Shown piece after piece: positions 1-64,000 of a stretch of DNA of 64,000 nt. This stretch comes from Myxococcota bacterium. GTDB taxonomy: Bacteria; Myxococcota_A; UBA796; JAJRTE01. The notes beneath the pieces are model-generated. The model did not search any database. It saw only the letters and a program-made list of their open reading frames with translations, and had not been told where the DNA came from. The stretch covers positions 2,955 through 66,954 of the forward strand of contig JAJRTE010000237.1 in NCBI GenBank assembly GCA_024278455.1. The letters are read 5' to 3'. Each line of letters opens with the position of its first letter. The stretch's first letter is position 1. The translations under genes were made by a program, and so were the position numbers.

Positions 1-468
1 GGCCCGATGGTGGTGGCTCGAGACATCGCCCATGCCAAGCTCAAGGAACGGTTGGACGCCGGGGAAGGCCTGCCGCAGTATGTCAAGGACCACATCATCT
101 ACTACGCCGGGCCGGCCAAGACGCCCAAGGGCATGGCCTCCGGAGCGTTCGGCCCCACCACCGCGGGCCGGATGGACCCATACGTGGGCCTCTTCATGCA
201 GCACGGCGGCGGCTACGTCTCGCTGGCCAAGGGCAACCGCAGCCAGATGGTCACAGACGCCTGCAAGCAGCACGGTGGGTTCTACCTCGGCTCCATCGGC
301 GGACCAGCCGCACGGCTCGCCCAGGACTGCATCACCAAGGTGGAGGTCCTCGAGTACCCCGAACTCGGCATGGAGGCCATCTGGCGCATCGAGGTCAAGA
401 ACTTCCCGGCGTTCATCCTGGTGGACGACAAGGGCAACGACTTCTTCGCCTCGTTGAAAAAACGGTAG
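1..468 (+). CDS. fumA: Class I Fe-S fumarate hydratase, C-terminal part (5' end outside window)
   Basis: [48 protein letters not shown] are typical of the class I fumarase C-terminal domain. Confidence 0.92.
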
Positions 469-542
469 GCAACCCCGGGCAGGGGAACCCCTTGCCGAAG
501 GCGAAGACCGGACCGCTGCAACGCCAGAAATCGCTTGCCCCG

Positions 543-571
543 TTGACATGTCCGCGCTGCCCAAGTATGGT
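543..571 (+). promoter_or_regulatory. sigma70-type promoter for NSS transporter
   Basis: TTGACA (543-548), 17-nt spacer, TATGGT (566-571), about 45 nt upstream of ATG 617. Confidence 0.7.
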
Positions 572-616
572 GACTGGCGTTGAAATCGGCACGAGTTTCC
601 TGGCTTGGAGGCGGCG

Positions 617-2017
617 ATGGGTGAACAGGTCTCCTCTCGAGGCACGTGGAGCGGGCGACTGGGGTTCGTACTGGCAGCGGCCGGAAGCGCCGTGGGGCTC
701 GGCAACCTCTGGAAGTTTCCGTACATCACCTACGAGAATGGCGGGGGCGCTTTCGTACTGGTCTACCTGGCGGCCATCGTGATGGTCGGCTTGCCGGTCA
801 TGATGGCGGAGGTCCTGCTCGGCCGGCGCACCCAGCGAAATCCGGTGGGCGCCTTCCGTATCCTCAGCCAAGGGAAGCGCGGCCACCGCCTGTGGCCCGG
901 CGTCGGCGTGCTCGGCGTGATTTCCGGGTTCGTGATCCTCTCCTACTACAGTGTCGTCGCCGGATGGACCGTGCGCTACATCGGGCTCGCCATCAGTGGG
1001 CGGCTCGAGGCCATGGCGGTCCACCCCGAAGCGTTGCAGACCTTCTTCAGCGGATTCCTCGGCAGCGGCGCTCAGCAGGTGCTCTATCACACCATCTTCA
1101 TGGGCGCGACCGTGGGCATCGTCATCCTGGGTGTACAAAAAGGCATAGAACGCGCGACCAAGGTGCTGATGCCCCTGCTGTTTCTGATCCTGATAGCCCT
1201 CGTGGCCTACTCGGTCACCACCCCGGGCTTTGGCGAAGCCCTCACCTTCCTCTTCCGACCCAACTTCAGTCAACTCTCCAGGGGCGCCGTGCTCGAAGCA
1301 CTGGGCCACAGCTTCTTCACCCTGAGCCTGGGCATGGGCGCCATGTTGACCTACGGCAGCTACATGAAGCGGGACAACTCCATCCAGAAGGCGGCCATCC
1401 TCATCACGTTTCTCGACACGCTGATCGCGCTGATGGCCTGTGTCGTGATGTTTTCGGTCATCAAGAGCTTCGATTTCGAGGTAACCAAGAGCGCGGTCAT
1501 CCTGTTCACAACGCTGCCGACCGTGTTTGCCAAGCTGCCGGGCGGGAGCCTGGTCAGCGCCCTCTTCTACCTGCTGGTCGCCTTCGCCGCACTGACCAGC
1601 ACCATCAGCCTGCTCGAAGTCGTCTCGAGCTACGCGATCGACGAACTGGGCTGGGGGCGGCGGCGCGCGTCTCTGACCATGGGCGGTGCGATCTGGCTGT
1701 TCGGCGCGTTGAGTGCGGTCAGTCTTGGCGCCAACGATACCCTGTCGAGTATCAACGTCATCGGGCGCTCATCGACGGCAGGGGTTTTCGGCACGTTGGA
1801 CTATCTCGCCAGCAACTGGTTCCTGCCGGTGGGCGGGTTTTTCATCGCCCTTTTCACCGGGTGGGCGATGAACCCCAGGGAGTCCCGTGAGACGCTCGAG
1901 GAGGGCCATGGCCCGATGCGCGCCTACTCGTTCTGGCATTTCCTCATCCGTTTCGCCGCGCCACTGGCCATTGGCGCCATCATCGTGAGTGTCATCCTGG
2001 GCGTGGAGTACAACTGA
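617..2017 (+). CDS. Sodium-dependent transporter, NSS/SNF (LeuT-like) family
   Basis: GFVLAAAGSAVGLGNLWKFPY, GGGAFVLVYL, FFTLSLGMG; many TM helices; start at MGEQVSS. Confidence 0.93.
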   Translation: MGEQVSSRGTWSGRLGFVLAAAGSAVGLGNLWKFPYITYENGGGAFVLVYLAAIVMVGLPVMMAEVLLGRRTQRNPVGAFRILSQGKRGHRLWPGVGVLGVISGFVILSYYSVVAGWTVRYIGLAISGRLEAMAVHPEALQTFFSGFLGSGAQQVLYHTIFMGATVGIVILGVQKGIERATKVLMPLLFLILIALVAYSVTTPGFGEALTFLFRPNFSQLSRGAVLEALGHSFFTLSLGMGAMLTYGSYMKRDNSIQKAAILITFLDTLIALMACVVMFSVIKSFDFEVTKSAVILFTTLPTVFAKLPGGSLVSALFYLLVAFAALTSTISLLEVVSSYAIDELGWGRRRASLTMGGAIWLFGALSAVSLGANDTLSSINVIGRSSTAGVFGTLDYLASNWFLPVGGFFIALFTGWAMNPRESRETLEEGHGPMRAYSFWHFLIRFAAPLAIGAIIVSVILGVEYN

Positions 2018-2028
2018 CCAGCGGCAGG

Positions 2029-2050
2029 GTCGCCGTCGGAAGCCGGCGAC
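2029..2050. terminator. GC hairpin between convergent genes (possible bidirectional terminator)
   Basis: GTCGCCG-8nt-CGGCGAC inverted repeat between stops at 2017 and 2069; no U-tract. Confidence 0.4.
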
Positions 2051-2068
2051 ACCGGAACTCGAGGCGTA

Positions 2069-3910
2069 TCAGAGGCAGATGTCGAGGGCCGACCGGTCGT
2101 CACTCAAGATCTGGACCGCGAGCCACCGGTTGCGCGACAGGATCTGGTAGACGAAGAACCGCGCCGTCTCGAGCTTGGCAGCGTAGAACTTCGCGCGCTC
2201 GTTATCCTCGAAGAATCGAGCGATTTCGGCCGGATCGGCGGGAATATCGAACGCTTCCAGGGCCTTCTGGGCGCGAACCGCCTGGTCGAGGAGGAGCCAT
2301 CCGACGGTGACGTTTCCGAACAGGGTCAAGTAGGGCGATGCACCGAGCGCCGCGTGCCGGACGTCGGCTCGAGCCAGTTTGCCCAGGTGTTTCGTCACGG
2401 TGACGAGTTCTTCCTGGGCGAGCTTGAGTTGGGCCACCTCCTGTGCGACCGCGGCGTGTGCCGCGTGGCGTGCGATCCAGGTCCCGAGGTCGTTCATGAA
2501 GGATTCGAACAGCTTTCCGCCGCTGCCGAACACCTTGCGCATGAGCAGGTCGATGGCCTGGATGCCGTTGGTGCCTTCGTAGATCGGGGCGATACGGGCG
2601 TCGCGGAGCGCCTGTTCGGCGGGGTAGTCCCTGCAATAGCCGGCGCCCCCGTAGACCTGGACCGCGACCGAGCAGGCCTCGACGCCGGAATCGGATCCCC
2701 ACGCCTTGCAGACGGGGGTGAGCAGGGCGTTGCGTCCATCGTGATAGGCCCGTTGGTGCTCATCCTCGGCCATGATGGCCAGGTCCTGCTGGATCGAAGT
2801 GTAATAGAGGAGCGCGCGTCCTCCTTCGGCCAGCGCGCGGACGGTCATCAGCATCCGCCGGACATCGGGGTGGTTATCGATGGTGACCTTTTCGCCGGTC
2901 ATGGACTTGCCCTTGCCGATGTCCGACCCCTGGATGCGTTCGGACGCATACTGCCGGGCGTTCGTGTACATGGCCGCGGCGAGCGCCTGTCCCTGGAGTC
3001 CCACGACGATACGCTCCTCGTTCATCATGTGGAACATGCAGGCGATGCCTCGGTTTTCCTCTCCGACGAGGTACCCGGTGCAGTTGTCGTTGTCTCCGAA
3101 ATTGAGGACCGTGGTGCACGAGCCGTGGATGCCCATCTTCTCCTCTATCTTCGAGCAGAATATGTCGTTGGGCACCGTGGCCTCACCGGCATCGTCGAAC
3201 CGGAACTTGGGGACGAGGAACAAGGAGAGCCCCTTGACACCGGCCGGCGCGTCCGGGAGACGGGCCAGGACCAGGTGGACATGGTTCTCGGCCAACTGGT
3301 GGTCACCGGCGGTGATGAAGGTCTTGGTGCCCTGGATCTTGTAGGTTCCGTCGCCCACGGGCGTGGCTCGAGTCATGCTAGCGCCGACGTCGGTCCCGGC
3401 GCCTGCCTCGGTGAGGCACATCGTGCCCTGCCATTCGCCGGTGATGAGCCTGGGCACGTACTTCTCCTGCAGCTCGGGAGACCCGTGCCTCAGCAACAGG
3501 TTGGCCGCCGCGCGACTCAGGCCCATGTAGGTCTGGAATGCCGGATTGGCAGCGATCATCATCTCGTCGATGGCCGTGGAGAGCACCTTGGGAAGACCCT
3601 GGCCGCCCTGGTCGACCGGCGCCACGAGCCCCACCCATCCCTGTTCGATCATCGCCTGCCAGACGTCGGCGAAGACTTCGGGGATAGTCACCTTGCCATC
3701 GTCCCAGCGGCACCCCACGGTGTCGCTCGCCGAGTTGGTCGGTGCCAGGATCTCCCGGGCGAAGTCCGCACCGGCCTCGAGGACCATGCGCACATCGTCG
3801 GCGGTGACATCTTGGTAGGCGGCACGCCCGAGCAGGGACTCGACATCGAGATGCTCGAACAGGACGAATTCCATGTCCCTCAGGTCCGGTTTGTAGCTGC
3901 TGGATTCCAT
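2069..3910 (-). CDS. Acyl-CoA dehydrogenase (long FadE-like type)
   Basis: MCLTEAGAGTD, GTKTFIT, EEKMGIHGS, IYEGTNGIQAIDL; start MESSSYKPDLRDMEF with AGGAG RBS. Confidence 0.92.
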   Translation of the reverse strand: MESSSYKPDLRDMEFVLFEHLDVESLLGRAAYQDVTADDVRMVLEAGADFAREILAPTNSASDTVGCRWDDGKVTIPEVFADVWQAMIEQGWVGLVAPVDQGGQGLPKVLSTAIDEMMIAANPAFQTYMGLSRAAANLLLRHGSPELQEKYVPRLITGEWQGTMCLTEAGAGTDVGASMTRATPVGDGTYKIQGTKTFITAGDHQLAENHVHLVLARLPDAPAGVKGLSLFLVPKFRFDDAGEATVPNDIFCSKIEEKMGIHGSCTTVLNFGDNDNCTGYLVGEENRGIACMFHMMNEERIVVGLQGQALAAAMYTNARQYASERIQGSDIGKGKSMTGEKVTIDNHPDVRRMLMTVRALAEGGRALLYYTSIQQDLAIMAEDEHQRAYHDGRNALLTPVCKAWGSDSGVEACSVAVQVYGGAGYCRDYPAEQALRDARIAPIYEGTNGIQAIDLLMRKVFGSGGKLFESFMNDLGTWIARHAAHAAVAQEVAQLKLAQEELVTVTKHLGKLARADVRHAALGASPYLTLFGNVTVGWLLLDQAVRAQKALEAFDIPADPAEIARFFEDNERAKFYAAKLETARFFVYQILSRNRWLAVQILSDDRSALDICL

Positions 3911-4173
3911 GAAGCGCTCCTTCCTCGAGTTGGATTTGGGATGTTGTCGCGGCCGGCAGTGACCACCGGGGCGAGCCGATCGAGCATACCACCAAAGGGC
4001 GGCGAAAACCACATCGCGGAAGAGCAGGAGGGGCGGCAAAGGTCGACAGCCGCGACAGGCGGTTCAGGTACCGGTGCCCGGCCCTACCGTCGTGGAGGCT
4101 TGTGTTCTGGCCAAACCTGGTCTACCTTTACCACGGTGATGAGCAGAGCGTGACACGTGGAGTCGATGGGCCG

Positions 4174-5328
4174 ATGGCTGCAACAGGTCGAAAAGGACCC
4201 GGCGTGAGCGTCTTGATCGTCGACGACGACCCGACGCTTGCACGCTGCCTTGCCCGGAGCCTCGAGCATGCGGGCTACGAAACCATCGTGGCCGGTAGTG
4301 GCATTTCGGGGCTCGACGCCCTGGCCCGCAACGACATCGGCGTGGTGATTTCCGACCAGGCCATGCCGGGCATGGATGGACTGACGTTCCTGGTCGAGGC
4401 CAGGCGCATGAAGCCGGAGGTGGTCCGGATCATGTTGACCGCCCACGGTGGATTCGAGCACGCTCGAGATGCCATCAACCGGTCCCAGATTTTCGGCTAT
4501 CTCACCAAGCCCTGCTCCCTCACCGACCTCCGCGACATGGTGGCGGATGCCTTCTCCCGGTTCGACCGGGAAAGGGAGAATCGATTCCTCCGGGAAGAGT
4601 GGGAGCGGCGCAATCGCCGGTTCGAGCGCCTGGTCTCGGAACTACGCCACACGATCGAGGCCCAGTCCCAGGAAATCGAGGACATGTTCCGGGAAGGGGT
4701 CATGACCCTTGCCCTGGTCGCCGAAGCGCGCGACGACGTGACCGGCAACCACGTCCGGCGTATCGCGCGCCTCGTGCGTGCGCTGTGCGCGGAACTCGCC
4801 ATGGACCGCGAACAGGTGGAACGAGTGGCCTACTCGAGCATGATGCACGATGTCGGCAAGATTCATATTCCGGACGCTATCCTCAAGAAGCCCGGCCCCC
4901 TCCAGCCCAGGGAATGGCGCATCATGAAGTCCCATACCGTGGCCGGAGAACGCCTCCTCGGCGCACCCCGGTTCGAAGTCGCCCGAAGAATCGCCCGTAG
5001 TCATCACGAGCGGTGGGACGGGTCGGGCTATCCCGACGGTTTGCGCGGGTCGGCGATTCCCCTGGAAGCTCGCATCGTCGCCGTGGGGGACGTGTTCGAC
5101 GCCCTGACGCATGACCGCCCCTACAAACCGGCGTGGCCCGTGCACAAGGCGCTCGAGGAAATGGCCGCGCAGACGGAAAAGGCCTTTGATCCGGACGTGC
5201 TGCGCGCCTTTATCCGCCTGGTCGATTCCGGCTTCGTTCGGGCGCGTGACCGGCACGATGGACAGGCTTCGGCCCGCGTGCCCGGCGCGGGTTCGCCCTC
5301 TCCGCCCGATAGGCCGGCTCCCACTTGA
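4174..5328 (+). CDS. Response regulator with HD-GYP c-di-GMP phosphodiesterase domain (RpfG-like)
   Basis: REC motifs (LIVDDD, ISDQAMPGMDG, LTKP) followed by MHDVGK and HHERWDGSGYPDGL. Confidence 0.92.
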   Translation: MAATGRKGPGVSVLIVDDDPTLARCLARSLEHAGYETIVAGSGISGLDALARNDIGVVISDQAMPGMDGLTFLVEARRMKPEVVRIMLTAHGGFEHARDAINRSQIFGYLTKPCSLTDLRDMVADAFSRFDRERENRFLREEWERRNRRFERLVSELRHTIEAQSQEIEDMFREGVMTLALVAEARDDVTGNHVRRIARLVRALCAELAMDREQVERVAYSSMMHDVGKIHIPDAILKKPGPLQPREWRIMKSHTVAGERLLGAPRFEVARRIARSHHERWDGSGYPDGLRGSAIPLEARIVAVGDVFDALTHDRPYKPAWPVHKALEEMAAQTEKAFDPDVLRAFIRLVDSGFVRARDRHDGQASARVPGAGSPSPPDRPAPT

Positions 5329-5473
5329 CCGGCACGCGCCGGCAGAGGGCACCCGGCCATGTCCCCGCCTCGCCTCCACGGGCCGTCTCGTACCGCGTCC
5401 ACGGATTCCAATCCTTGACGGCAACAGCATCCGAGTGATAATAGAAGACGAACACGACATCCAGGAGGGATTC

Positions 5474-6121
5474 ATGGGTGGGTGCGGACGCAATGCAAGG
5501 GTGGTGCAGATCGTTTTGTGTGGGATGCTCGGCTGTGTCATGAGCGGCTGCGAGAAGGAAGACGTGGCACCCAGGACGCACGGCCCCGGTGCGGGCTGGA
5601 ACGATGGGCCGGTCCAGGAGGAACCCGCCCCTCCGGTCGATGCGGACAGACCGGAGACACAGGACGGCGCGGAGCAGAAGGCGCACCTGTCGGGTGACGA
5701 GACCAACGTGCCGCCCCCTGAGGATGGTGACATCCCGCTCGGCGGCGTGCCGCTTCCCGAGGGAACGGCTGGCGTCAAGGTCAGCGGCACCGTCGTCTAC
5801 AGCGACTACAAGACCGGCCTGATCCAGATCGACGTGAGCGACAAGGGGATGTTCGGCGGAGGCAGTCGGGCGGCGCGCCCCAAGATCATCTCCCTGTACC
5901 GAATGGACAAGCCGGGCGCCTTCGAGATGGAAGTGGCCGCGAACTCCGGGGAAATCTGGATCTCGGCCTACAACGACGCGGACCGGAACGGCAAGCCGAC
6001 CCGGGGGGAACCTCGAGGAAACGCCACGGGCAATCCCTACAAGGTCGGAACGGAAAACATCACGGGAGTGGAGATCATTCTCGCGCCAGAGAAGATCCCG
6101 CCTCCACCTGGGGCTGGGTAG
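5474..6121 (+). CDS. Putative lipoprotein of unknown function
   Basis: AGGAGG RBS; hydrophobic stretch ending VMSG-C; Pro/acidic linker; C-terminal beta-rich domain with DADRNG. Confidence 0.65.
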   Translation: MGGCGRNARVVQIVLCGMLGCVMSGCEKEDVAPRTHGPGAGWNDGPVQEEPAPPVDADRPETQDGAEQKAHLSGDETNVPPPEDGDIPLGGVPLPEGTAGVKVSGTVVYSDYKTGLIQIDVSDKGMFGGGSRAARPKIISLYRMDKPGAFEMEVAANSGEIWISAYNDADRNGKPTRGEPRGNATGNPYKVGTENITGVEIILAPEKIPPPPGAG

Positions 6122-6367
6122 TATCGGGCCACCCATCCGACGCGGCCGAGTCGACCTGCCACGCGCTATCGAGGACATCCGAATGTAGCAGCAAACGGTT
6201 ACGCGGCGCGACACGCCTTCGGAGACCGGGGCCCCTCCCGGCCTGGTGCCGGTACCGGCGCCAGAAATCGATTCCCTGACCCGACAGCCTCGTGGGCTGG
6301 CGTCTCGAGTACCCGGCACCCCTGACTTGCCGCCGGGACCCGCGGCGCACATGCCGATGGCGTGACC

Positions 6368-7486
6368 ATGGACAAGGAAAAACGGAAGTACCTCGAATTC
6401 TGGCGGGAGGAGCGCAACGGCGCGTTCCTCTACGCAAGCCTCGCGGAGATGGAGCCGGACCGGCACATAGCCGAGATCTATCGCCGCATGGCCGAAGTGG
6501 AGAGTCGGCACGCCCGCCGGTGGGCGGAGAAGTATCGGGCGGAGGGGGGAGAACTCCCCCATTTCAGACCCGCCATGCGTACCCGCGTGCTGCTTTTCCT
6601 GGCCCGACGCCTCGGCATCGCCACGGTCCTGCCATCGATCCGCTCCATCGAGGGTGATGGCCAGTCCACCTACCAGGTTCGGGGGGACGCCCGCGACCTC
6701 GCGGCCGACGAGGCGTCCCATGCACGAGTCCTCGACGCGATCGCCTACGTGCGGCAGGGCGGCATCTCTGGTGGCACCGTGGCGCGACTCGAGGGACGCC
6801 ACCGGCTTTCCGGCGGCAATGCCCTGCGTGCCGCAGTGCTCGGCGCCAACGACGGCCTGGTTTCCAACCTGTGTCTCGTCATGGGGGTTGCTGGCGCCGA
6901 CATGGGCGGATCGTCCATCCTGTTGACCGGACTGGCAGGCCTGCTCGCCGGTGCCTGCTCCATGGCTCTTGGCGAATGGCTTTCGGTCCAGAGTTCCCGT
7001 GAGTCCTACCAGAGACAGCTCGACATCGAGGAAGAGGAGATCCGCACCGCGCCCCAGGAAGAGGCAGAGGAGCTGGCGCTTATCTACCAGGCTCGAGGCC
7101 TCGACCCCGAGACGGCGCATACCGTCGCCGCCCGGATCATGGCCGACCACGAGACAGCGCTGGACACGTTGGCTCGAGAGGAACTCGGCATCGACCCGGA
7201 CGACCTTGGGGGTTCTCCCTGGGTGGCAGCGTTCACCTCCTTCTGCCTGTTCGCGCTGGGCGCAGCGCTTCCGGTTCTCCCTTTCTTCGTCCTGGAGGGC
7301 ACCGCAGCCATCGCCGGGTCCGCTGCCCTTGGCATCCTCGGGCTCGCACTGCTCGGCGCAGGGGCGACCCTGTTCACCGGACGTTCCATCTGGTTTTCCG
7401 CGGCCCGGCAGGTCACCATCGGCCTGGGCGCAGCGGTGGTCACGTTCGGGGCCGGTCACCTGCTCGGGGTCAACCTCGCCGGCTGA
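6368..7486 (+). CDS. VIT1/CCC1 family metal transporter with N-terminal rubrerythrin/ferritin-like domain
   Basis: N-terminal E..E...Y...E..H pattern; LRAAVLGANDGLVSN, AGACSMALGEWLSV. Confidence 0.9.
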   Translation: MDKEKRKYLEFWREERNGAFLYASLAEMEPDRHIAEIYRRMAEVESRHARRWAEKYRAEGGELPHFRPAMRTRVLLFLARRLGIATVLPSIRSIEGDGQSTYQVRGDARDLAADEASHARVLDAIAYVRQGGISGGTVARLEGRHRLSGGNALRAAVLGANDGLVSNLCLVMGVAGADMGGSSILLTGLAGLLAGACSMALGEWLSVQSSRESYQRQLDIEEEEIRTAPQEEAEELALIYQARGLDPETAHTVAARIMADHETALDTLAREELGIDPDDLGGSPWVAAFTSFCLFALGAALPVLPFFVLEGTAAIAGSAALGILGLALLGAGATLFTGRSIWFSAARQVTIGLGAAVVTFGAGHLLGVNLAG

Positions 7487-7522
7487 CATTCCGGGATTGC
7501 ACGGGAATTGTAATATTCCATA

Positions 7523-7551
7523 TTTACTGTTCCCCACCACTGCGGTATGAT
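7523..7551 (+). promoter_or_regulatory. sigma70-type promoter
   Basis: TTTACT-17nt-TATGAT in an AT-rich gap, 39 nt upstream of ATG 7590. Confidence 0.55.
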
Positions 7552-7589
7552 AAAATCGGGCGGCGGCATGGGTAAGCAAGCCGAGGTGG

Positions 7590-8669: not shown

Positions 8670-9939
8670 CGGCTCGCTCAGGAATCCCCACGGGACGCCC
8701 CCCACCTCGAGTCCGCAGCGCTTCTCGCGTCGCCGCTGCCGCCGCACCGAACGTGACCACACTGCTGGCGACCACCAAGAGCACGTGGGCCGCGTGCAGA
8801 TCTCCCGGAGAAACCTCCTCGACCACCTTCGCGAGACCCGAGCCGGCATCGATGTGGCCGGAGCGGGTCAGGTGCTGGAGCCCGAACACCACGTTGACCA
8901 GCCATGGAGCCACGTTCAGACCAACGAACCACACGCGGGCACCCGAGCCCAGCGCGAGGAGCCAGCAGTAGACCGGCAGCAAGTAGTATTCCGGGTTGAT
9001 GTGGTAAAATAGGAGGTTGACCCACAGGAGCAGCGCTGCGAACGTTGCCGCCATCCTCGACGACATCTCCCGCTCCTCGAGGTGCGGGAACACCCTGCCG
9101 GCCTTGCGCAAGACCATGACCACGGCAACCGCCGCCAGCAGGGTCGATATCCACGCGGCGTGGACCGGCGGGAACCCCCCACGCACCATCAACAGTGCCC
9201 ACAGGTTGACACCGAAATCCGGCCGGGGGATGAACCCGGCCAAGGGCAGCGGCTCCCCTCGAGCCAAGGCACCCATGCAGACCATCGCGTAGACAAGCAC
9301 CGCCGGTGTCCCGGCGTGGAGCAGCCGGTGCGGCAAGCGCGGGCGGGGCAGCCCCCACACCAGCGCCAGAAGCGGGACGACGAAGAATAGCTTGGCCGCC
9401 ACCACGGCCAGCGAGCAGGCCACGAGGGCGCCCCGGTACCGCCGGACAGCCACCAGGTACAGCACCAGCATGAGCCAGCAGGTGGAGATGGCTTCGTCCT
9501 GCGCCATCACGGCGGTTGTCAACCACCCCATGGGCATGAGGATGAGCGTCAGGCCGAGCGTTCGAGGATGGTCGCGTTCCGGAAGGATCGTGCAGAACGT
9601 GAGGCACAGAAGGAACGCTGCTGCGCCCTCGTACAGTATGCCCGTCAGGCGCATGACATAGAATGCCGTTCCGAAACGGGAAAGTGGAAGGGCGACAAGA
9701 GCTTCGAGCAACGGAAGAAGAGGAGGATGCTGCCCGAACCGGGCCGTGTGGCCGAGCAGGAGTCGTAACGGATCCCGGGCCATCTCCCAGTGCCCGGCCA
9801 CGTCACTTGTGAATTCCTCGGCGCGCGTCCACCATCCGAGCGCCATGAGGAGCAGGAGTCGAGCCGCCACCAGGGCGAGACCCACACCGGCGCAAAACCT
9901 CACCTTGCCTGCTGGTACGTGTCCCGCCCCGGCGTTCAA
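8590..9939 (-). CDS. Polytopic membrane protein, probable GT-C fold glycosyltransferase (GT87-like)
   Basis: About 10 TM helices; N-terminal loop EEFTSD..., HPPLLP, QDEAI, AKLFF; TTG start overlaps the upstream TGA (TTGA). Confidence 0.6.
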   Translation of the reverse strand: MNAGAGHVPAGKVRFCAGVGLALVAARLLLLMALGWWTRAEEFTSDVAGHWEMARDPLRLLLGHTARFGQHPPLLPLLEALVALPLSRFGTAFYVMRLTGILYEGAAAFLLCLTFCTILPERDHPRTLGLTLILMPMGWLTTAVMAQDEAISTCWLMLVLYLVAVRRYRGALVACSLAVVAAKLFFVVPLLALVWGLPRPRLPHRLLHAGTPAVLVYAMVCMGALARGEPLPLAGFIPRPDFGVNLWALLMVRGGFPPVHAAWISTLLAAVAVVMVLRKAGRVFPHLEEREMSSRMAATFAALLLWVNLLFYHINPEYYLLPVYCWLLALGSGARVWFVGLNVAPWLVNVVFGLQHLTRSGHIDAGSGLAKVVEEVSPGDLHAAHVLLVVASSVVTFGAAAAATREALRTRGGGRPVGIPERAVMDRRDGSSRGSPGQGTTTSTTHHPS

Positions 9940-11678
9940 TGGGTCGGCTCGGTTTCTCCGGCGGCCACGTACACCGGAGCGATGTCAACAGGAATACCCG
10001 CGATCCTCTCGATGGTCGCCCCGATCTCGGGCGTCGCCTTGCCGTAGCCGGCAATGAGTTTCGCGGCTCGAGCATAGTCGCCCGTCGCTTCGATCATGAG
10101 CAGCTCTCGCGCCAGGGATTCCACCGCGCCCGGCATCTTTTCGACGTCCACCCGGTAGCGCCCCTCCCCTACGGGCACGATGGCCCCCTTCTCACGGTAC
10201 CAGTTCCACTGAATGGCAACACCACCTCCGTGCGCCTCGGTCAGACCGAATCGCATGCTCCGGAACATCATGCCCGCGTCCGTCACGAAGAGGTGCTCCG
10301 GTGTGAATGACCCGACCAGGCCCCGATCCATCGCGAACAGGAGGTTCCAGACGCCGAGAACATCGGCCTTGCACTCTTCGATCGTGGAGTAGAGTTCCTT
10401 GAGAAGGATCCGGCTTTCGACACGCGTGCCGTCCGGCTGAGCGATCATGCCGGGGCCGAGCCCATGAGACAACTCGTGGAACAAGATGTGGGTGAAAAAA
10501 GCCTCGAACGACAAGAACGCCTGCTGGTCCGAATCCACTACGAGCTTGGCAATGGGCAGTCCCACCTGGTAGTACTTGGCTTCCATGACGTTCTTCAGCA
10601 ACACCTTCTTGGACCCCTTCGCTTCCCGGACCCGTTCGTCATTGGGCAGGTTGAACGCAGCGGTCTGGACACCGTGGCGAGCGTCTCCGGCCGTGTAGAT
10701 TACCTGGACCACCTTGATCGGAGACTCGGTTCCCCGATCCAGGTTCTTGTGTTCGTCCGGCATTGGCAAGTTCCGTTCCATCTCCGGCAGGTAGTCGCCG
10801 AGTGTCTTCAACTCCTCGCTGGCTTCCCGATCGACGACGGTAACGAACGCCTCGAAGGCTGCCTTGTAGTTGAACAACCTGTCCTGGTATACTTCGTAGG
10901 GTCCAATCACCACCTCGATGGCGGAGTCCAGGTCCATCCATGCCAGGTCGCTCTCGTAGTAGTCGTCGGAGAGGAATGCCGCGGCCCGCTTCTCGAGATA
11001 GGTCCGGAGAGATCCGTTGCCGGCGAGCGCTGCCGCTTCCCGGAGCGCGGCGGCCGCTGCCTCGAGGTCTTCGGCATAGTAGGTGGAGTAGGGAATCGCC
11101 ATCAACCTGTCGCCGTCTCGCCGCACCACGGTAAACAACCCGCACAGACTGTCCTTGTCCCCGGGATGGACCTCGAGCCACTGTTCGAGCGCTTCCCGTG
11201 TCAAGTCGGGTGGATAGAAGCCCGAACCGAGCGGGAGGGCTCCCTGCTCGCCGAACGGGGCGACAAAAGGCTCGAAATCCCGGAGCGAGTCCCACCTTCC
11301 CTTCATGATGTCGAACAGCTCGAGCGCCCGGGCATATTCGGGCGAAGTCTCCGCCAGCGACACGAGCTTCTCACGGGTGGCGGGGTTTTCTTCCGATACC
11401 TGCCGGAGGTATATCGCATCGATGTGCCGGGCCGCCTCGATCAGCTTCTCCACGACGGCCTTGTCCTGCTCCGCCAGGAGCGACCGGTCATAGTCGATCA
11501 CGGTGTAGGGCAGCCTGTCCAGTCGTTGGGGAATGTCGGGAGCGAGAGCCAGGGGAGCTTCGTGCTCCTGGTCCGGTAAACGCTGGGTGGCTTCTGGGTT
11601 CGAGGCGACCGTGCGGCACCCGGCGGGAGCCGACAGCGACAGCGCAATGGCCAGTGCGAGATGGTGAAACGATTTCAT
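9936..11678 (-). CDS. Peptidase M49 (dipeptidyl peptidase III-like) lipoprotein
   Basis: IGPYEVYQD, FNLPNDERV, HELSHGLG, IEECKAD; lipobox-like PAG-C; GGAGG RBS. Confidence 0.85.
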   Translation of the reverse strand: MKSFHHLALAIALSLSAPAGCRTVASNPEATQRLPDQEHEAPLALAPDIPQRLDRLPYTVIDYDRSLLAEQDKAVVEKLIEAARHIDAIYLRQVSEENPATREKLVSLAETSPEYARALELFDIMKGRWDSLRDFEPFVAPFGEQGALPLGSGFYPPDLTREALEQWLEVHPGDKDSLCGLFTVVRRDGDRLMAIPYSTYYAEDLEAAAAALREAAALAGNGSLRTYLEKRAAAFLSDDYYESDLAWMDLDSAIEVVIGPYEVYQDRLFNYKAAFEAFVTVVDREASEELKTLGDYLPEMERNLPMPDEHKNLDRGTESPIKVVQVIYTAGDARHGVQTAAFNLPNDERVREAKGSKKVLLKNVMEAKYYQVGLPIAKLVVDSDQQAFLSFEAFFTHILFHELSHGLGPGMIAQPDGTRVESRILLKELYSTIEECKADVLGVWNLLFAMDRGLVGSFTPEHLFVTDAGMMFRSMRFGLTEAHGGGVAIQWNWYREKGAIVPVGEGRYRVDVEKMPGAVESLARELLMIEATGDYARAAKLIAGYGKATPEIGATIERIAGIPVDIAPVYVAAGETEPTH

Positions 11679-12583: not shown

Positions 12584-12683
12584 TACGCTCCTCCTTTGAT
12601 ACATGGGTCACAATGATACCCATCTCGACGTTCATGTAGCCCTTTTTCTACTACCCGGTGATTCGGGACCTCGTTCAATACGG

Positions 12684-12705: not shown

Positions 12706-12733
12706 ATTCAGCACAATAGACTATTTCAAGAAA

Positions 12734-41307: not shown

Positions 41308-41411
41308 CCCCGGGGCCTCCCTGTGCCTCCGGCCCGGCCAGACCGGCGAAACCTGCTGGGCCAACGAGCAGCCTCTACCGACAGGTGGATTCTCTTCAGG
41401 AACGAACAACG

Positions 41412-44311: not shown

Positions 44312-45700
44312 ATGGCCATCAATCTCACAGTTCCGCCTTTCGGCGAATCCGTCACCGAGGCGGTCATCGCGCGATGGTACGTCCGGGAAGGAGACATCGT
44401 CGCCAAAGATCAACCGGTTTGCGAAATCGAGAGCGACAAGGTCAACCAGGAACTGCCCTCCCCTGTCACGGGCCGGCTCGTCGCCATCCTGAAGCAGGCC
44501 GACGAACCGGTCTCGGTGGGCGAAGTCATCGGTCAAATCGAACCCGTGGAAGCGGTCGAAACGGGGACGGGCGGGGAATCGAGCGCAGAGGACGCCGACA
44601 CACCCGGTCACCAGGCGCCCCCGCCGCCCACGGGTCCTGCGGCGCGGCGACTGCTCGCCGAGCACGGAATCGAGCCTACCGAAGTCACGGCCACCGGGCC
44701 CTCCGGGCGGCTCACCAAGGGCGACGTGCTGGCCCACGTTGCGCACGAACAGGCGGAAACAGCAGCGGTGCGAACGGGCGGCGAGGAGGGCGCCACGGGG
44801 AGTGCGGTGTCGCCGGCCGCTTCGGGCACGGCAGCGGCGACAGGGACGCCGCGCACCACGCCTCGAGCCCTGGCGACCGGTGCCACGCGGTCCGGGAAAC
44901 CCACGCCGGACCCTGTCACGCCGGTGAGCGAACCGGCACCGCCTCGAGGGCTCACGTGGACACCTGCGGCACCATCTTCTGCCGGGCGTCGCGGGGCGGA
45001 AGGGCGCGAGGAGCATGTCAGGATGAGCCCCCTCCGCAAGAAGGTAGCCCAACGCCTGGTCGACGTGCAACGGAATGCCGCCATTCTGACCACGTTCAAC
45101 GAGGTGGACATGTCCGCCATCATGGCACTGCGCAAGAGGTACCAGGCTCGCTTCGTGGAGAAGTATGGTATCAAGCTGGGCTTCATGTCGTTCTTCGTGA
45201 AGGCGTGCATCGACGCGCTCAGGGCGTTCCCGGGCGTCAACGCGGAGATCCGGGACGACGAAATCGTGTACAAGCGATACTACGACATCGGCGTTGCGGT
45301 CGGTGGAGGCAAGGGGCTCGTGGTCCCGGTCGTGCGTGACGCGGATCGCATGGGTTTTGCCGAGGTGGAGCTTGCCATCGCCGCGCTCGCCGAGAAGGCC
45401 CGGAACAACAAGCTGAGCCTCGAGGAGCTTTCCGGCGGCACTTTCACCATCAGCAACGGGGGAATCTACGGTTCGCTCATGTCCACGCCCATCCTCAACC
45501 CGCCGCAGAGCGGTATCCTGGGCATGCACAAGATCGAAGATCGGCCCGTGGTCGTGGACGGGCAAATCGTGGTGCGCCCCATGATGTACCTGGCCCTTTC
45601 CTACGATCACCGTGTGATCGACGGTCGCGAAGCCGTGTCTTTCCTGGTCCGGGTCAAGGAGTGTATCGAGGGTCCGGAACGGATGCTTCTGGAAGTCTGA
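44312..45700 (+). CDS. sucB: Dihydrolipoamide succinyltransferase E2
   Basis: Lipoyl domain (ESDK), E3-binding [12 protein letters not shown]-like motif, [17 protein letters not shown]. Confidence 0.96.
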
Positions 45701-45753
45701 CACCCTCGGCGATCGGCTGCGCCGATATCGCCGTCCTCGTACTGGAGAATGAA

Positions 45754-47160
45754 ATGCGTGAGCAAACCGTTTTCGATCTGGTCATCATCGGTTCGGGACC
45801 TGGCGGCTACGTGGCCGCGATCCGGGCGGCTCAACTCGGTCTCAAGACCGCCTGTGTCGAGAAGGCCCGTTCCCTCGGCGGCACCTGCCTGAACGTGGGC
45901 TGTATCCCGAGCAAGGCCCTTCTCGAGTCTTCCGAGCACTACATTTCCGCGCGGAAGCACCTCAAGCAGCATGGCATTCGCGTGGAGGGCGTATCCATCG
46001 ACGTGGGGGCCATGATGGCGCGCAAGGATCGTGTCGTGAAGACGCTCACCTCCGGGATCGCCATGCTGTTCAAGAAAAATGGTGTGACCCAGGTCACCGG
46101 GACCGGCCGAGTCGTCGCGCCCGATGCCGTGGAGGTCACTGGCGGCGAAGAGACCACGCGTCTGCGCACCCGGCGTATCCTCATCGCCACCGGATCGACC
46201 GTGGCGGTGCCTCGAGGCTTCCGGCTCGACGGCAAGTACGTGGTCAGCTCGACCGAGGCCCTCGAGTTCGACGCGGTTCCCAAACGTCTCGTCATCATCG
46301 GTGCCGGTGTGATAGGGCTGGAGCTAGGATCGGTCTGGGCACGACTGGGCGCCAAAGTGACCCTGATCGAGCTGCTTCCCCGGATTCTCGCCGGCTTCGA
46401 CAGTGAACTGGCCACCACCGCGCAGAAGCTGTTCCAGCGGCAGGGCATGAAGTTCATCCTGGGCGCTCGAGTCGGTCGCGCCGAGATCGTGGGGCAGGAA
46501 GTGGAAGTCGGGTACGATGACAAGGATGGCAACGCCCGGAGCATCACCTGCGACCGCCTCCTGGTGAGCGTCGGGCGCCGGCCCTACACGGAAGGGCTGG
46601 GCTTGGAGGACCTGGGCATCGAGATGGACGGACATGGCAGGATTGCGGTCGATGCCAGTTACCAGACGTCGGTCCCGGGGATCTATGCCGTCGGCGACGT
46701 TATCGCCGGCCCCATGCTCGCCCACAAGGCCCAGGAAGAGGGCGTCGCCGCGGTGGAGATGATGGCCGGGCACGTGGCGAAGGTCGACTACGACGCCATT
46801 CCCGCCATCGCCTATACCCAGCCCGAAATCGCCACGGTCGGCGCGACCGAGGATGCGCTCAAGGAGCAAGGCGTGCCTTACGCCCGCGGCACCTTCCCCT
46901 TCCAGGCCAATGGCAGGGCCAAGGCCATGGGCCAGGCCGATGGCTGGGTCAAGGTGTTGGCAGACTCCAGGACCGACCGGATCCTGGGCGCTCACATCAT
47001 CGGGCCTCGAGCCGGAGACCTGATTGCCGAGCTGGCATTGGCCATCGCGTTCGAAGGCAGTTCCGAGGACGTGGCCCGCTCGTGCCACGCCCATCCCACG
47101 CTCGCGGAAGTGGTCAAGGAAGCGTGTCTCGCCGTGGAGGGCCAACCCATCCACATGTAG
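45754..47160 (+). CDS. lpdA: Dihydrolipoamide dehydrogenase E3
   Basis: GSGPGGYVAA, GGTCLNVGCIPSK, HAHPTLAE. Confidence 0.97.
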   Translation: MREQTVFDLVIIGSGPGGYVAAIRAAQLGLKTACVEKARSLGGTCLNVGCIPSKALLESSEHYISARKHLKQHGIRVEGVSIDVGAMMARKDRVVKTLTSGIAMLFKKNGVTQVTGTGRVVAPDAVEVTGGEETTRLRTRRILIATGSTVAVPRGFRLDGKYVVSSTEALEFDAVPKRLVIIGAGVIGLELGSVWARLGAKVTLIELLPRILAGFDSELATTAQKLFQRQGMKFILGARVGRAEIVGQEVEVGYDDKDGNARSITCDRLLVSVGRRPYTEGLGLEDLGIEMDGHGRIAVDASYQTSVPGIYAVGDVIAGPMLAHKAQEEGVAAVEMMAGHVAKVDYDAIPAIAYTQPEIATVGATEDALKEQGVPYARGTFPFQANGRAKAMGQADGWVKVLADSRTDRILGAHIIGPRAGDLIAELALAIAFEGSSEDVARSCHAHPTLAEVVKEACLAVEGQPIHM

Positions 47161-52621: not shown

Positions 52622-52831
52622 TGCCACTCCTGGATCCCCCGGGGGGGAAAGGCTGTCCGGCCCGTAGAACACAACGGTTGATACTACACTCCATCGGTTC
52701 GAACTCGCCACCGAAAACGGCCGGCGAACCACCGCTCCGCCAACGAAGACCGAGATCACGCAAAACCACTCCTGTCATCGGTCCCCGCCCGCGCTCGTCC
52801 ACAGCCCCCCCCGGCTCGAGACGACAGAACG

Positions 52832-56193: not shown

Positions 56194-56279
56194 CGTCTCC
56201 GCTCCGCAACCGCGTCTTCACACGACACGCAACGGCCAGGCCGGCGACTCGATCGACTGGGTGGCAAGGCAGGCCGGGC

Positions 56280-57845: not shown

Positions 57846-57943
57846 GTCAACCTCCTATCACAGGGTTGGTCCCGGCGTTGTCGGCTCGAGCCAGCGTGGG
57901 TGCTCTGGTTCTGAGTCATGTCGGGGAGCGAGCCCGGGCGAGG

Positions 57944-58957: not shown

Positions 58958-59077
58958 GCAGGGCATGCCTCCCAAAGTTGCGATACCTGGACGCCAGCCA
59001 TGTGGCCGGGCCGACCTGGAAACGATACTCCAATTGCGGTGAGCAGGAAAGCGAAATCGGTGTCCATGATCTGGATA

Positions 59078-60820: not shown

Positions 60821-60943
60821 GTTCGCGTCCCCATCCAGGTTTGCGGCGGCGCCCGGAGACGGCCGCGGGCGCGGTCCCCCCCTGGCCGCACGTCTCTCCA
60901 CCCCGGCCGCAGCGCTGACACCGGCCCACTCCGGGAGTCGTTC

Positions 60944-63151
60944 TCAGGACCCGTTCACCGGGCGATCCGCACCGATCGCGCCCACGAGCACCTCTTTCAA
61001 CGCCCGGTCGCGCAGGCGTCGCCGCAAGGCCTCCATGTCCGGGTACATGACCCGGTCCTCGTCGTAGCGCCGCAGGCCCAGCCCCTCCAGGGTGTCGATC
61101 ATGCGCCGAATCGGCTTCCCCGGCAACAGGGGCTCACGAAACTTCAGACCCTGGTACGCGGCCAGGAGTTCGATCGCGATGATGTATTCAAGGTGCTCGA
61201 GGACCTTGACGGCCTTGCGCGCGGCGATGGTGCCCATGCTCACGTGGTCCTCGGTGTTGGCACAGGTCGGAATGGAATCCACGCTGGCCGGATGGCTGAG
61301 GACCTTGCTCTCGGACACCAGGGCAGCGGCAGTGTACTGGGGAATCATGAAACCGCTGTTCAACCCGCTCGAGTCGATGAGAAAACCGGGCAGCCCGGCC
61401 GAGTGGTTTTCGTCGACGAGATGCGCAATGCGCCGCTCCGAGATGTTCCCGACTTCGGCCAGGGCGATGCACAGGTAGTCCATCCCGATGGCAATCGGTT
61501 CCCCGTGGAAGTTGCCCCCGCCGATCGTGTTGTCCCGGCACGCCTGGATCCGCTCCGCGCTCGCCTCGAGCCACGCTCGATACCCGTCGAGAGACATCCC
61601 GTCCCATCCCCCGGGCGGCTCCGGCGGAAACAGGAGCGGGTTGTCGCTTGCGGAATTGATCTCCACCTCGACGACCTCGGCCACGTGCCACAGGGCCCGG
61701 TAGGCACAGGCGAGCACCTGGGGAAAACAGCGGAACGAGTAGTCGTCCTGGACAAGGGGCTCGGTCGGGACCACTCGGTCGAGTTGTTCCACCACGTTGA
61801 CCAGCGCGGACTTGATCTTGGGCGTCGCCTCGCCGTCGGGAAACGTGAACTGCCCCACCGACTGGAGCAGGGCCACGGCATCCTGCCGCACCCGCCTGAG
61901 GAGGCGGTTGAACAACGCGATCTGCTCCCGCGCCGGCAGCGTCGCCCATTCGGCCAGACGGCTGTCATCCACATCCCCGCTCGCAGGGTCCACGGGGACC
62001 AATCGGGACAACCGGCCCGCCAGGCGGGACATCTCCCGCCGCAACTCGAGCACCGTCGCCGGTATCGCTTGCCCGGCATGCTCGAGTTCGCTCTCAAGGT
62101 CCGACAGGTGCTCCTGCGCGTCCCGCAGGTGTATCCGCCCGGCACGGTACAGGTGCGCGGTGTTCAGGTACGGCAGTTCGAGGATCCGGCTCTCCTTGCA
62201 CCACGCCCTGATCCGCCGCGCCGTCTCGGCCTGGTAGGACTGGTTCCGCGCGGCATGGATCTCCGGCCGATAGGCGTCGAGCACGCCGCGCGCGGCCTCG
62301 AGGCTCATGGCGGCGGCGACTTCGGCGAAACCCAGATCGAAGCTGGCGTCGTAGATCACCAGGCACGCGATGGCGGTCATGAACTGCGTGCCGTTGTTGA
62401 GTGCGAGCCCTTCCTTCTCCTTGAGTTCGATGGGCCGGAAGGCCCACCCTTCCCGCCGCGCCACTTCTTCGAACGACCGCGCGCCACCCTCTTCTCGTGA
62501 CACGTCGCCCCACGCCGGACCATCCCCGCCGCCGCCCGACCCCGCGAGGCGGGGGAAGGACACGAAATCGCTCGCCCGTGGCTCCTCGACCGGAAGGAGA
62601 GGATCGCGCCGGGACGCCCGCGGATAGTATCGTGCTCCGGGGTCTCCCATCACGAACAACGCCAAATGCGACAGCGGTGCCAGGTCTCCACTGGCGCCGA
62701 CCGACCCTTTCTCCGGAACGTAGGGGTAGATGTCGTCGTTCAGCATGGCCACCAGCCGCTCGAGCACCTCGACGCGAACGCCCGAGTAGCCCAGGCAAAG
62801 TGTGTTGAGCCTCAACAAGAGAGCGGCACGCACCACCTCCTCGGGAAACGGCGCACCGACTCCACAGGCATGGCTGCGAATCAGGTTCCGCTGCAACGCC
62901 TCCGCCTGCTCCGGCTCGATGAACTTGTCGCGAAGCTTGCCGAACCCGGTGGTCAACCCGTAGACCTTCTCCCGGTGGGCGAGCAGCACATCGACCATCA
63001 CCCGGCACCGCCCCACCCGGGCCAGGGCCTCGCCCGCGACCCTGACACGCCGGCGAAAACGGGCGACTGCTACCACCTGTTCGATGGTCAGGCTCCGCCC
63101 GTCGATGACAAGCTCCTCGCTGCTCTCGAACGCACAGGCAAACCGCTGCAT
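60944..63151 (-). CDS. hutH: Histidine ammonia-lyase (MIO family), 735 aa with large insertions
   Basis: VYGLTTGFG, LIRSHACG, GASGDLAPL, KEGLALNNGTQ, QDDYSFRC, GGNFHG, EDHVSM. Confidence 0.85.
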   Translation of the reverse strand: MQRFACAFESSEELVIDGRSLTIEQVVAVARFRRRVRVAGEALARVGRCRVMVDVLLAHREKVYGLTTGFGKLRDKFIEPEQAEALQRNLIRSHACGVGAPFPEEVVRAALLLRLNTLCLGYSGVRVEVLERLVAMLNDDIYPYVPEKGSVGASGDLAPLSHLALFVMGDPGARYYPRASRRDPLLPVEEPRASDFVSFPRLAGSGGGGDGPAWGDVSREEGGARSFEEVARREGWAFRPIELKEKEGLALNNGTQFMTAIACLVIYDASFDLGFAEVAAAMSLEAARGVLDAYRPEIHAARNQSYQAETARRIRAWCKESRILELPYLNTAHLYRAGRIHLRDAQEHLSDLESELEHAGQAIPATVLELRREMSRLAGRLSRLVPVDPASGDVDDSRLAEWATLPAREQIALFNRLLRRVRQDAVALLQSVGQFTFPDGEATPKIKSALVNVVEQLDRVVPTEPLVQDDYSFRCFPQVLACAYRALWHVAEVVEVEINSASDNPLLFPPEPPGGWDGMSLDGYRAWLEASAERIQACRDNTIGGGNFHGEPIAIGMDYLCIALAEVGNISERRIAHLVDENHSAGLPGFLIDSSGLNSGFMIPQYTAAALVSESKVLSHPASVDSIPTCANTEDHVSMGTIAARKAVKVLEHLEYIIAIELLAAYQGLKFREPLLPGKPIRRMIDTLEGLGLRRYDEDRVMYPDMEALRRRLRDRALKEVLVGAIGADRPVNGS

Positions 63152-63155
63152 GATA

Positions 63156-64000
63156 CTATTGCTTCCTCTTCCCCCCGGCCGATTCGCCGGAATCCCTTTC
63201 CCTGCCGGCGAGAACAGAGGCGGCCTGCTCCAGGCTCCCGGTCCACGTCCAGCCCGACGAGCGTTCGACCACGGACACCATCTCGCCGGTGCTCCCTTCG
63301 ACGACGATTTCGACTCCGGCGGACGCCGGCCGGGTACCTGTGGCACGGTCGCGCGCTGCTGCTCCTCCCCCCGCCCTCGCGGGGCACCAGACGACCGGGA
63401 GCTGTACCTGGCTACGCAGCCTGTCTGCCACGGTCAACGCCGCCAGGTCCAGGGCCGGATCGGCGCCCACGATCCGGATCCCCCTCGCATCGCTCGCGGG
63501 CCCGTGTCCCACGACCTCGAGCACGCGCTCCAGGCCAAAGGCGAACCCCACGGCGCTAAACAGGTTCTCAGGCGGTGCGCCAGGGTCCCGGGCGTCTGCG
63601 GCGCCAGCGGTCGCCACTGCCCGGTCGTAGATCCACCGGTAGAGCCGGTCGTACCGGCCCCCGCCGCAGAACCGCACCAGGTCGCCACCGGCGGCGGCGA
63701 ACCATTCGAACGTCACTCCCGTATAGTAGCCGATGGGCCGGCCTGACACGGGAGTCAGCTCCACGGACACCTCACGCCGCGACCGGACCTGCCCGGCCAG
63801 CCAGACCATGTCGTCCAGCATCGCCTCGAGATCGCCCTGGAGCGGCACCAGCGCCTCGAGTTCCTGTCCGAACGTGCCCGGGTCCGGGTCGAGTTCGGCC
63901 AGTGCCAGGAGCCGGCGGGATGTGCGGGAATCGATACCCCAGGCCTCCCGCCATGCGCGCTCGAGGCGGCTTGCAAGGTCCTCGAGGAGCCGGGTGCGCA
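63156..64000 (-). CDS. HisRS-fold protein (HisS or HisZ), C-terminal part; 5' end outside window
   Basis: RPIGYYTGVTFE, GGGRYD, GFAFGLERV; frame is open to the window edge. Confidence 0.75.
   Translation of the reverse strand, partial: RTRLLEDLASRLERAWREAWGIDSRTSRRLLALAELDPDPGTFGQELEALVPLQGDLEAMLDDMVWLAGQVRSRREVSVELTPVSGRPIGYYTGVTFEWFAAAGGDLVRFCGGGRYDRLYRWIYDRAVATAGAADARDPGAPPENLFSAVGFAFGLERVLEVVGHGPASDARGIRIVGADPALDLAALTVADRLRSQVQLPVVWCPARAGGGAAARDRATGTRPASAGVEIVVEGSTGEMVSVVERSSGWTWTGSLEQAASVLAGRERDSGESAGGKRKQ

Follow-up and report, generated by a model that had tools for sequence, protein, structure and literature searches.

CTCGAG behaves like a weak highly iterated palindrome in a bacterial lineage of the probable phylum Myxococcota

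Introduction

The 64-kb stretch of DNA analyzed here (positions 1 to 64,000, hereafter the window) comes from contig C202 of G000, the genome assembly of a bacterium that probably belongs to Myxococcota, and the hexamer CTCGAG recurs throughout its genes and the DNA between them. An earlier note, written from the letters of the window, likened this word to the highly iterated palindromes (HIPs) of cyanobacteria, exemplified by HIP1 (GCGATCGC). The cause of HIP1 accumulation in cyanobacteria has been open for about thirty years, and CTCGAG supplies a second word, in a phylum unrelated to cyanobacteria. A literature search found no report of bacterial CTCGAG over-representation, and a CTCGAG motif of the honey bee (PMC3903499) is unrelated. 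Here we report that the excess extends across the genome, survives strict null models and recurs in close relatives, and that the directional force behind it works at the level of DNA and not through proteins, codons or RNA.

Materials and methods

Assembly G000 comprises 7.03 Mb in 315 contigs, the largest of 121 kb. Its probable placement in Myxococcota is supported by the closest matches to its 2-oxoglutarate dehydrogenase E1 (SucA), which come from Kofleriaceae and Polyangiaceae at no more than 52% identity. The gene set consists of 4,314 genes called with a self-trained codon model; all gene boundaries below are these calls and not curated annotation. Expected counts came from Markov models and from a codon shuffle in which synonymous codons were permuted per gene, keeping the protein and the gene's own codon usage. 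The short-spacer set holds 1,742 spacers of 40–300 nt each (240 kb in total). The outer-base odds ratio compares C...G with the other combinations of bases around TCGA. Among the genomes compared, both the genus and the family include a single further species, called the congener here. G002, the closest genome outside the family, belongs to the same order and served as the baseline for log-odds.

Results and discussion

The window contains exactly 185 CTCGAG sites (2.9 per kb), in agreement with the ~180 counted earlier by hand; its GC content is 63.7%, not the 66% assumed then. Observed counts exceed expectation 8.6x under a zero-order model (21.6 expected), 5.9x under a dinucleotide model (31.1 expected), 2.5x under a third-order Markov model (73.5 expected) and 1.39x under a fourth-order one (132.9 expected). 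The control words GTCGAC, CTCGAC and GTCGAG occur 25, 52 and 36 times, respectively. Sites occupy every coding phase as well as the ~8 kb of non-coding DNA (22 sites, 2.7 per kb), as the following entries illustrate (none is assigned a strand).

1..64000: whole window, with 98 CTC-GAG, 47 xCT-CGA-G, 18 xxC-TCG-AGx and 22 intergenic sites by our own gene calls
17..22: out-of-frame site through the rare codons GCT-CGA-G, sequence TGGCTCGAGACAT
636..641: TCT-CGA-G site, sequence CCTCTCGAGGCAC
4463..4468: site just beyond a called gene that ends at 4461
7092..7097: GCT-CGA-G site, sequence AGGCTCGAGGCCT
44862..44948: a pair of intergenic sites, at 44862 and 44943, within a 1.4-kb gap between the genes at 41385-44264 and 45661-47157
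63516..63986: five sites past the last called gene of the window (63516, 63825, 63855, 63960 and 63981)

The example sites named earlier near 16, 635, 4462 and 7091 are right to within one base (17, 636, 4463 and 7092); by our gene calls the one at 4463 falls just outside a gene. A further example, near 7152, has no site; the nearest is at 7173.

Genome-wide, CTCGAG occurs 19,006 times (2.7 per kb, or 2,700 per Mb) and ranks first of all 4,096 hexamers by count, by zero-order ratio (7.9) and by codon-shuffle ratio. It exceeds third-order expectation 2.54x and fourth-order expectation 1.37x. Among the 16 NTCGAN words, counted on both strands, CTCGAG reaches 38,012 and the runner-up 10,607. Codon shuffling leaves 157 observed sites against 42 expected in the window (3.7x) and 16,337 against 4,980 across the genome (3.3x), while the controls GTCGAC, CTCGAC and GTCGAG stay at 0.75, 1.10 and 1.19. 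CTCGAG is the single top outlier under this null, the next ranks being its own overlapping words. The excess is not confined to in-frame CTC-GAG (10,037 vs 4,226 expected, 2.4x): it reaches 4.0x in xxC-TCG-AGx (2,163 vs 538) and is strongest, at 19x, in xCT-CGA-G, which runs through rare codons (4,137 vs 216). Leu-Glu pairs are spelled CTC-GAG in 60% of cases against the 24% expected from codon frequencies, among (S/P/T/A)-Arg-(V/A/D/E/G) triplets the share of xCT-CGA-G is 25%, x-Ser-(Ser/Arg) triplets bear CTCGAG in about 14% of cases, and 21% of all CGA codons fall inside CTCGAG sites. The short spacers carry 2.17 sites per kb, 5.3x, 2.65x and 1.29x the expectation of second-, third- and fourth-order Markov models. 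The density profile around gene starts and stops is flat genome-wide, with no positional peak, which rules out a positional role there. The proposal that the word occurs in all codon phases and between genes thus holds for the whole genome.

Ordinary composition, whereby TCGA richness and a preference for CTC among Leu codons and GAG among Glu codons would together make the excess, accounts for most of the zero-order figure. In a survey of 401 genomes of the phylum, the present genome ranked first in raw CTCGAG density, yet ~25 others reached at least 2 sites per kb. Four of the dense members (G224, G323, G140 and G305) have 1.75–2.65 sites per kb and zero-order ratios of 5–8x, but third- and fourth-order ratios of ~1.1x and ~1.0x, codon-shuffle ratios of 1.4–1.9 and few out-of-frame sites. 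A Thermoanaerobaculia locus holds 3.8 CTCGAG per kb, yet its outer-base odds ratio is 1.1. GC-rich relatives and unrelated GC-rich bacteria thus show 5–8-fold zero-order ratios and 2–3.8 sites per kb with no higher-order excess. The zero-order 8-fold excess, which we reproduce, is mostly generic, arising from TCGA richness and Leu-Glu codons, and as a measure of anything particular to this genome it was overstated; the part specific to this lineage is about 2.3–3.3-fold. The caveat attached to the original figure, which named these same two sources, is borne out at zero order and does not extend to the third-order and codon-shuffle excess. As a full explanation, composition or a codon artefact is refuted by the persistence of the excess under Markov models and codon shuffling, by the surplus of rare-codon sites, by spacers as enriched as genes and by an outer-base odds ratio of 3.2 (below), and we consider it very improbable.

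What is favored is the palindrome as a whole, all 6 bp of it, at any place that permits it, with a strength roughly uniform per potential site. Flanks outside the six bases hold almost no information and the palindrome is not extended; CCTCGAGG and GCTCGAGC occur at the frequencies predicted from independent flanking bases. CTCGAG as part of a longer repeat or hairpin is ruled out on these grounds. One-base neighbors show no enrichment (0.73, 1.11 and 1.32 for CTCGA followed by A, C or T), and the Leu-Glu alternatives to CTC-GAG are all drained alike, with no one-base neighbor specifically depleted. The outer-base odds ratio captures this all-or-none behavior: it is 3.2 in this genome, 2.8 in its spacers, 3.67 in the window and 3.1 in the congener, against 0.65–1.12 in seven other genomes of the phylum and a median of 0.9 (maximum 1.34) in 30 loci from many phyla. 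This ratio tells real CTCGAG cases from composition, whereas zero-order counts mislead in GC-rich bacteria.

Known mutational context effects reach only one or two neighboring bases and would enrich half-sites. Because bases five positions apart are interdependent here (odds ratio 3.2), such an effect is not expected to be the source. A neutral bias in the mutations left by replication or repair, dependent on context but acting with no site-specific recognition, would agree with a pressure that is uniform across coding phases and spacers, and with half of the sites not being positionally conserved between species even where amino acids are. It would, however, enrich half-sites, yet only the complete palindrome is enriched, and sister lineages are neutral or depleted; we regard it as unlikely. 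Since only the whole symmetric word is favored, the force most probably acts via a protein that binds as a symmetric dimer when it reads the site.

Several other palindromes have nearly vanished from the genome. Observed-to-expected ratios are 0.07 for GAGCTC (170 sites), 0.04 for CAGCTG (86), 0.03 for CATATG (20), 0.01 for CCTAGG, 0.15 for CGTACG and 0.24 for ACGCGT; the window has no GAGCTC, one CAGCTG and three CTGCAG. The loss of GAGCTC and CAGCTG is common to the congener, whereas in G002 the missing words are GTCGAC, CTGCAG and CAGCTG (each at about 0.03). GAA-CTC or GAG-TTG takes over the spelling of Glu-Leu, and Glu-Leu pairs are under-represented (0.89 and 0.81). Such recoding, together with the near-absence of GAGCTC and CAGCTG in both species of the genus, might suggest that avoidance of GAGCTC, CAGCTG, CATATG and similar words pushes synonymous choice towards CTCGAG as a by-product. 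We therefore purged GAGCTC, CAGCTG, CATATG, CCTAGG, CGTACG, ACGCGT, CTAG and TTAA from codon-shuffled genes. Simulated CTCGAG remained unchanged at 850–875 sites against 2,719 observed, which refutes this explanation. The even draining of Leu-Glu alternatives and the enriched spacers also speak against it, as does a metagenome contig of a relative (L196) that is enriched 5.35x with no GAGCTC avoidance, and it can be regarded as extremely improbable.

The pressure is weak and of similar strength in all three coding contexts. Relative to G002, log-odds in eligible contexts are shifted by ~1.3 in frame, 1.8 in xCT-CGA-G and 1.0 in xxC-TCG-AGx. The congener has 15,723 sites and the same phase profile (codon shuffle 3.30x overall; 2.1, 17 and 5.1 by phase) despite near-saturated synonymous sites (~71% DNA identity; four-fold codon identity 0.406 vs 0.352 by chance), and the trait is old within the genus. 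Where amino acids are conserved, the congener carries a site with probability 0.52 if one is present here and 0.36 if not (in frame), 0.50 vs 0.27 (xCT-CGA-G) and 0.36 vs 0.08 (xxC-TCG-AGx). Gene-stratified odds ratios for persistence in the three phases are 1.7, 2.8 and 3.9; over 383 codon pairs the median is 1.45, and CCT-CGA and GCT-CGA rank first and third. CTCGAG sites appear to outlast ordinary synonymous states, as expected under either selection or biased conversion; the comparison involves two genomes whose synonymous positions are close to saturation, and sites would live longer under any directional force. Roughly one site in two nevertheless turns over between the two species despite conserved amino acids.

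Proteins bear a small imprint of this pressure. Leu-Glu pairs occur at 1.42x expectation in this genome, 1.29x in the congener, 1.20x in G002 and 1.00x in G003, and amino-acid conservation at CTCGAG sites resembles that at control words. A weak pressure for a DNA word can thus rewrite codon choice and shift dipeptides, with Leu-Glu raised and Glu-Leu lowered.

Among close relatives, L196 (Logan SRR12897917) is enriched, with 36 sites in 14.4 kb spread over all three phases; G002 is neutral (fourth-order Markov ratio 1.00, outer-base odds ratio 0.93); and L199 (L199/L200, Logan SRR14092371/2) is depleted, with one CTCGAG in 14.4 kb. L196 and L199 share the gene order around a methyltransferase gene (see below) and have opposite CTCGAG status. 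The coexistence of enriched, neutral and depleted close relatives indicates that the trait is patchy among them. The present genome, the congener and L196 (enriched), G002 (neutral) and L199 (depleted), which share gene order, offer a ready-made comparison in which to look for the gene responsible.

Methyltransferases are candidates, and the earlier note had proposed a HIP-like process driven by methylation or repair, or else a chromosomal DNA-binding site. N6/N4 methyltransferase homologues in the genome number at least six in the gamma class and about ten in the beta class. Two gamma-class N6-adenine enzymes are solitary and kept in the congener (54% and 72% identity).

C269:62645-64240, minus strand: TaqI-like N6-adenine methyltransferase, 532 residues; best solved relative M.TaqI (E = 8e-7)
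C179:22215-23873, plus strand: Eco57I_C-type N6-adenine methyltransferase, ~553 residues; M.Eco57I C-terminal domain

Neither of these two enzymes tracks the trait across relatives, and no C5 enzyme was found. The TaqI-like protein matches the TaqI_C specificity domain weakly and has very few relatives among 5.8 billion proteins. Its gene is flanked by one for a secreted repeat protein of 3,036 residues and one for a disordered protein, in an order that is the same in the congener (54% identity), G002, L196 and L199. This conserved trio (G000 C269:59119-73682; G001 C3; G002 C333 (L175); L196; L199) consists of a giant secreted protein of 2,800–3,100 residues with Ig-like repeats, the TaqI-like enzyme and a large disordered protein. 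Since neither its presence nor its tree follows the trait, the TaqI-like enzyme is a poor candidate for the determinant unless its specificity differs among relatives.

The Eco57I_C-type copy is 72–74% identical to that of the congener, above the proteome average, and 43–48% identical to that of G002. Its family is very large, retains ~50% identity across phyla and is common in Meiothermus and Thermaceae. On four contigs (L204, L206, L207 and L208; 10001-12430 in each) the end of the methyltransferase gene overlaps by 4 nt the next gene, which encodes a 232–238-residue protein with no Pfam or NCBIfam match that is 60–88% identical across Acidobacteria-like and Planctomycetes contigs. The partner is probably the nuclease, and this widespread two-gene operon probably an uncatalogued type II restriction-modification pair. 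The present genome has no homologue of the partner, which makes its own methyltransferase copy solitary. The four partner-bearing contigs have no avoided palindrome in common, and names in protein databases and on plasmids are generic. In a Meiothermus sp. contig (L203, JBBINI010000011.1, 73773-93598), a solitary Eco57I_C-type gene (51% identity) lies six genes from dnaA; this 19.8-kb segment contains 46 CTCGAG, evenly spread, where dinucleotide shuffles predict 4.15, and its outer-base odds ratio is 2.4.

Methylation of this word by solitary enzymes is documented. Sequencing by the single-molecule real-time (SMRT) method assigned CTCG(m6A)G, where m6A is N6-methyladenine, to the type II enzymes M.Mru1279II, M.Mch9957IV, M.Mhy14884I and M.Hka19301II, which have no listed nuclease partner (Blow et al. 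2016, PMC4752239). These enzymes come from Meiothermus ruber (where 99.5% of sites are methylated), M. chliarophilus, Marinithermus hydrothermalis and Halomicrobium katesii (PMC4752239). The present genome resembles them in the word and in its two solitary gamma-class N6-adenine candidates. The Eco57I_C-type family, which may or may not include the four enzymes, is common in Meiothermus and Thermaceae as well. A methylation link is plausible.

A different methylation-based route is very-short-patch repair of the Vsr type, in which a 5-methylcytosine (m5C) methyltransferase and Vsr would convert near-sites to CTCGAG. In Escherichia coli, Vsr-driven enrichment of CCWGG was reportedly described by Bhagwat and McClelland in 1992 and by Gelfand and Koonin in 1997. 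Such a process would likewise yield a DNA-level, phase-independent drive towards a methyltransferase target and longer-lived sites, and CTTGAG, one transition away, is the most depleted Leu-Glu codon pair (0.27). The complementary neighbor CTCAAG is not depleted, however (1.35). The drive needs both enzymes, and searches for C5 methyltransferase (PF00145) and Vsr (PF03852) gave no match in this genome, while control genomes matched both; the congener has one of each, which are thus not shared. Documented CTCGAG methylation in solitary systems is, moreover, mostly m6A. The repair drive suggested at the outset is, in this form, decidedly unlikely.

Replication control offers another precedent. 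Blow et al. 2016 (PMC4752239) described an orphan CTCGAG methyltransferase in Nocardia, where sites cluster between dnaA and dnaN, and a solitary enzyme could similarly mark a cluster at the origin here. The excess, however, is genome-wide and not local. The assembly, which is 94% complete, yielded no dnaA; the congener does have the gene, and its origin region holds one site between the presumed dnaN and dnaA, with 3.7 kb from within dnaA upstream free of sites. An origin cluster is therefore ruled out in the congener, and this explanation appears highly unlikely.

XhoI and PaeR7I recognize the same word, and some relatives avoid CTCGAG as nuclease-exposed genomes do, whereas the word is enriched 2.3–3.3-fold here. 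The XhoI nuclease family (PF04555) had no match in seven genomes, but none in any control genome either; the SacI and PvuII nuclease families likewise gave no match, in the control genomes as well.

Against this background, the parallels with HIP1 can be drawn. HIP1 reaches 1,000–2,000 sites per Mb, a matching methyltransferase occurs in every HIP genome, and alternative cyanobacterial HIPs include a hexamer, GGCGCC, in Calothrix PCC 7103 (Elhai 2015, PMC4390886). HIP1 is 15–300-fold over-represented, conserved between genomes and periodic (10–90 kb) (Xu, Lawrence and Durand 2018, PMC5861425). CTCGAG is likewise a bare palindrome and its genome's most over-represented word, occurs in all reading frames and between genes, is lineage-specific and patchy among relatives, has sites that appear to outlast control words, and shares its genome with solitary methyltransferases. 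Its density is comparable (the two words span 1,000–2,700 per Mb) but not diagnostic, as ordinary GC-rich genomes reach it for CTCGAG. It differs in being 6 bp instead of 8 bp long, in its phylum, in its strength (8x at zero order and 2.3–3.3x under strict nulls, short of the 15–300x of HIP1) and in that no methyltransferase is matched to CTCGAG in this genome. The HIP-like statistical behavior claimed from the window is thus upheld, and the CTCGAG excess is a weaker, apparently unreported cousin of HIP1.

We hypothesize that CTCGAG is a HIP-like palindrome of a few related lineages, kept by a weak DNA-level force that is most probably protein-mediated, and we assign this reading a probability of roughly 0.55. 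A protein reading CTCGAG as a symmetric dimer would exert the force, the likeliest mediator being a solitary DNA methyltransferase, and the sites would be maintained either because a dense mark is weakly selected or because repair or conversion is biased towards them. Several observations weigh against it. The effect is modest next to HIP1 and, as noted, the congener has no origin cluster of the Nocardia kind. The TaqI-like gene occurs in enriched (L196), neutral (G002) and depleted (L199) relatives alike, and its tree does not follow the trait. The four contigs that carry the Eco57I_C-type enzyme with its partner show no consistent CTCGAG avoidance (23 sites vs 38.5 expected). Genes scored absent could have been missed, the assembly being 94% complete. 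Finally, the sites are over-dispersed (index of dispersion 2.35 in 5-kb windows) and their spacing is not even.

Over-dispersion, together with the missing positional pattern around genes, also bears on whether CTCGAG is a binding-site array for a nucleoid, segregation or uptake protein unrelated to methylation. Such an array would account for the need for the complete symmetric word; the density lies within the range of HIPs and uptake sequences, and a role in nucleoid structure has been proposed for HIP1 (PMC5861425). On the other hand, a 6-bp word is poorly specific, relatives already carry ~1 site per kb, and no candidate protein was identified. We consider this array doubtful, with a small but real chance of being right.

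Tentatively, one may also extend the methyltransferase hypothesis to a transferable determinant that drives or selects CTCGAG accumulation in any host genome, for which the solitary Eco57I_C-type enzyme would be the lead. Sequence comparison places the closest relatives of this lead in other phyla and indicates that the 235-residue partner, found elsewhere, is lost here. Although we give this idea only a slim chance, it would explain why the same hexamer is over-represented in unrelated phyla (this lineage and Deinococcota) and patchily so among close relatives, and solitary methyltransferases would then give rise to HIP-like palindromes in general.

CTCGAG is also unevenly distributed within the genome. 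Recently acquired or defense islands are CTCGAG-poor. The 38 poorest windows (3% of the genome) contain 22% of all GAGCTC and 35% of all CAGCTG, and some are methyltransferase-bearing islands. A 30-kb defense island outside the window (C94:5000-35000) has four CTCGAG against 19.9 expected from its own codons and includes the longest CTCGAG-free stretch of the genome (9.2 kb). Its products are a BrxC-like ATPase of 1,382 residues, a methyltransferase of 1,017 residues, a pair of SIR2-like and HerA-like proteins, an SNF2 helicase and a PglZ-like protein, and this BREX-like and SIR2/HerA island contains no GAGCTC, CAGCTG or CATATG.

Among the relatives, G009, G012, G189, G317 and contig L199 avoid CTCGAG strongly. 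In the survey of the phylum, genus g9 has 117–984 CTCGAG against 5,700–7,500 GAGCTC, family f44 about 1,400–1,600 against 9,700–10,500, and genus g60 about 840–1,420 against 3,900–6,300, while G021 shows the reverse (5,095 CTCGAG, 14 GAGCTC). This distribution suggests that XhoI-like and SacI-like restriction pressures are scattered over the phylum.

Within the window itself, positions 19077-24366 encode a 1,430-residue ATPase with tetratricopeptide repeats (AAA_16 and many TPRs), adjoined on the same strand by a 337-residue gene.

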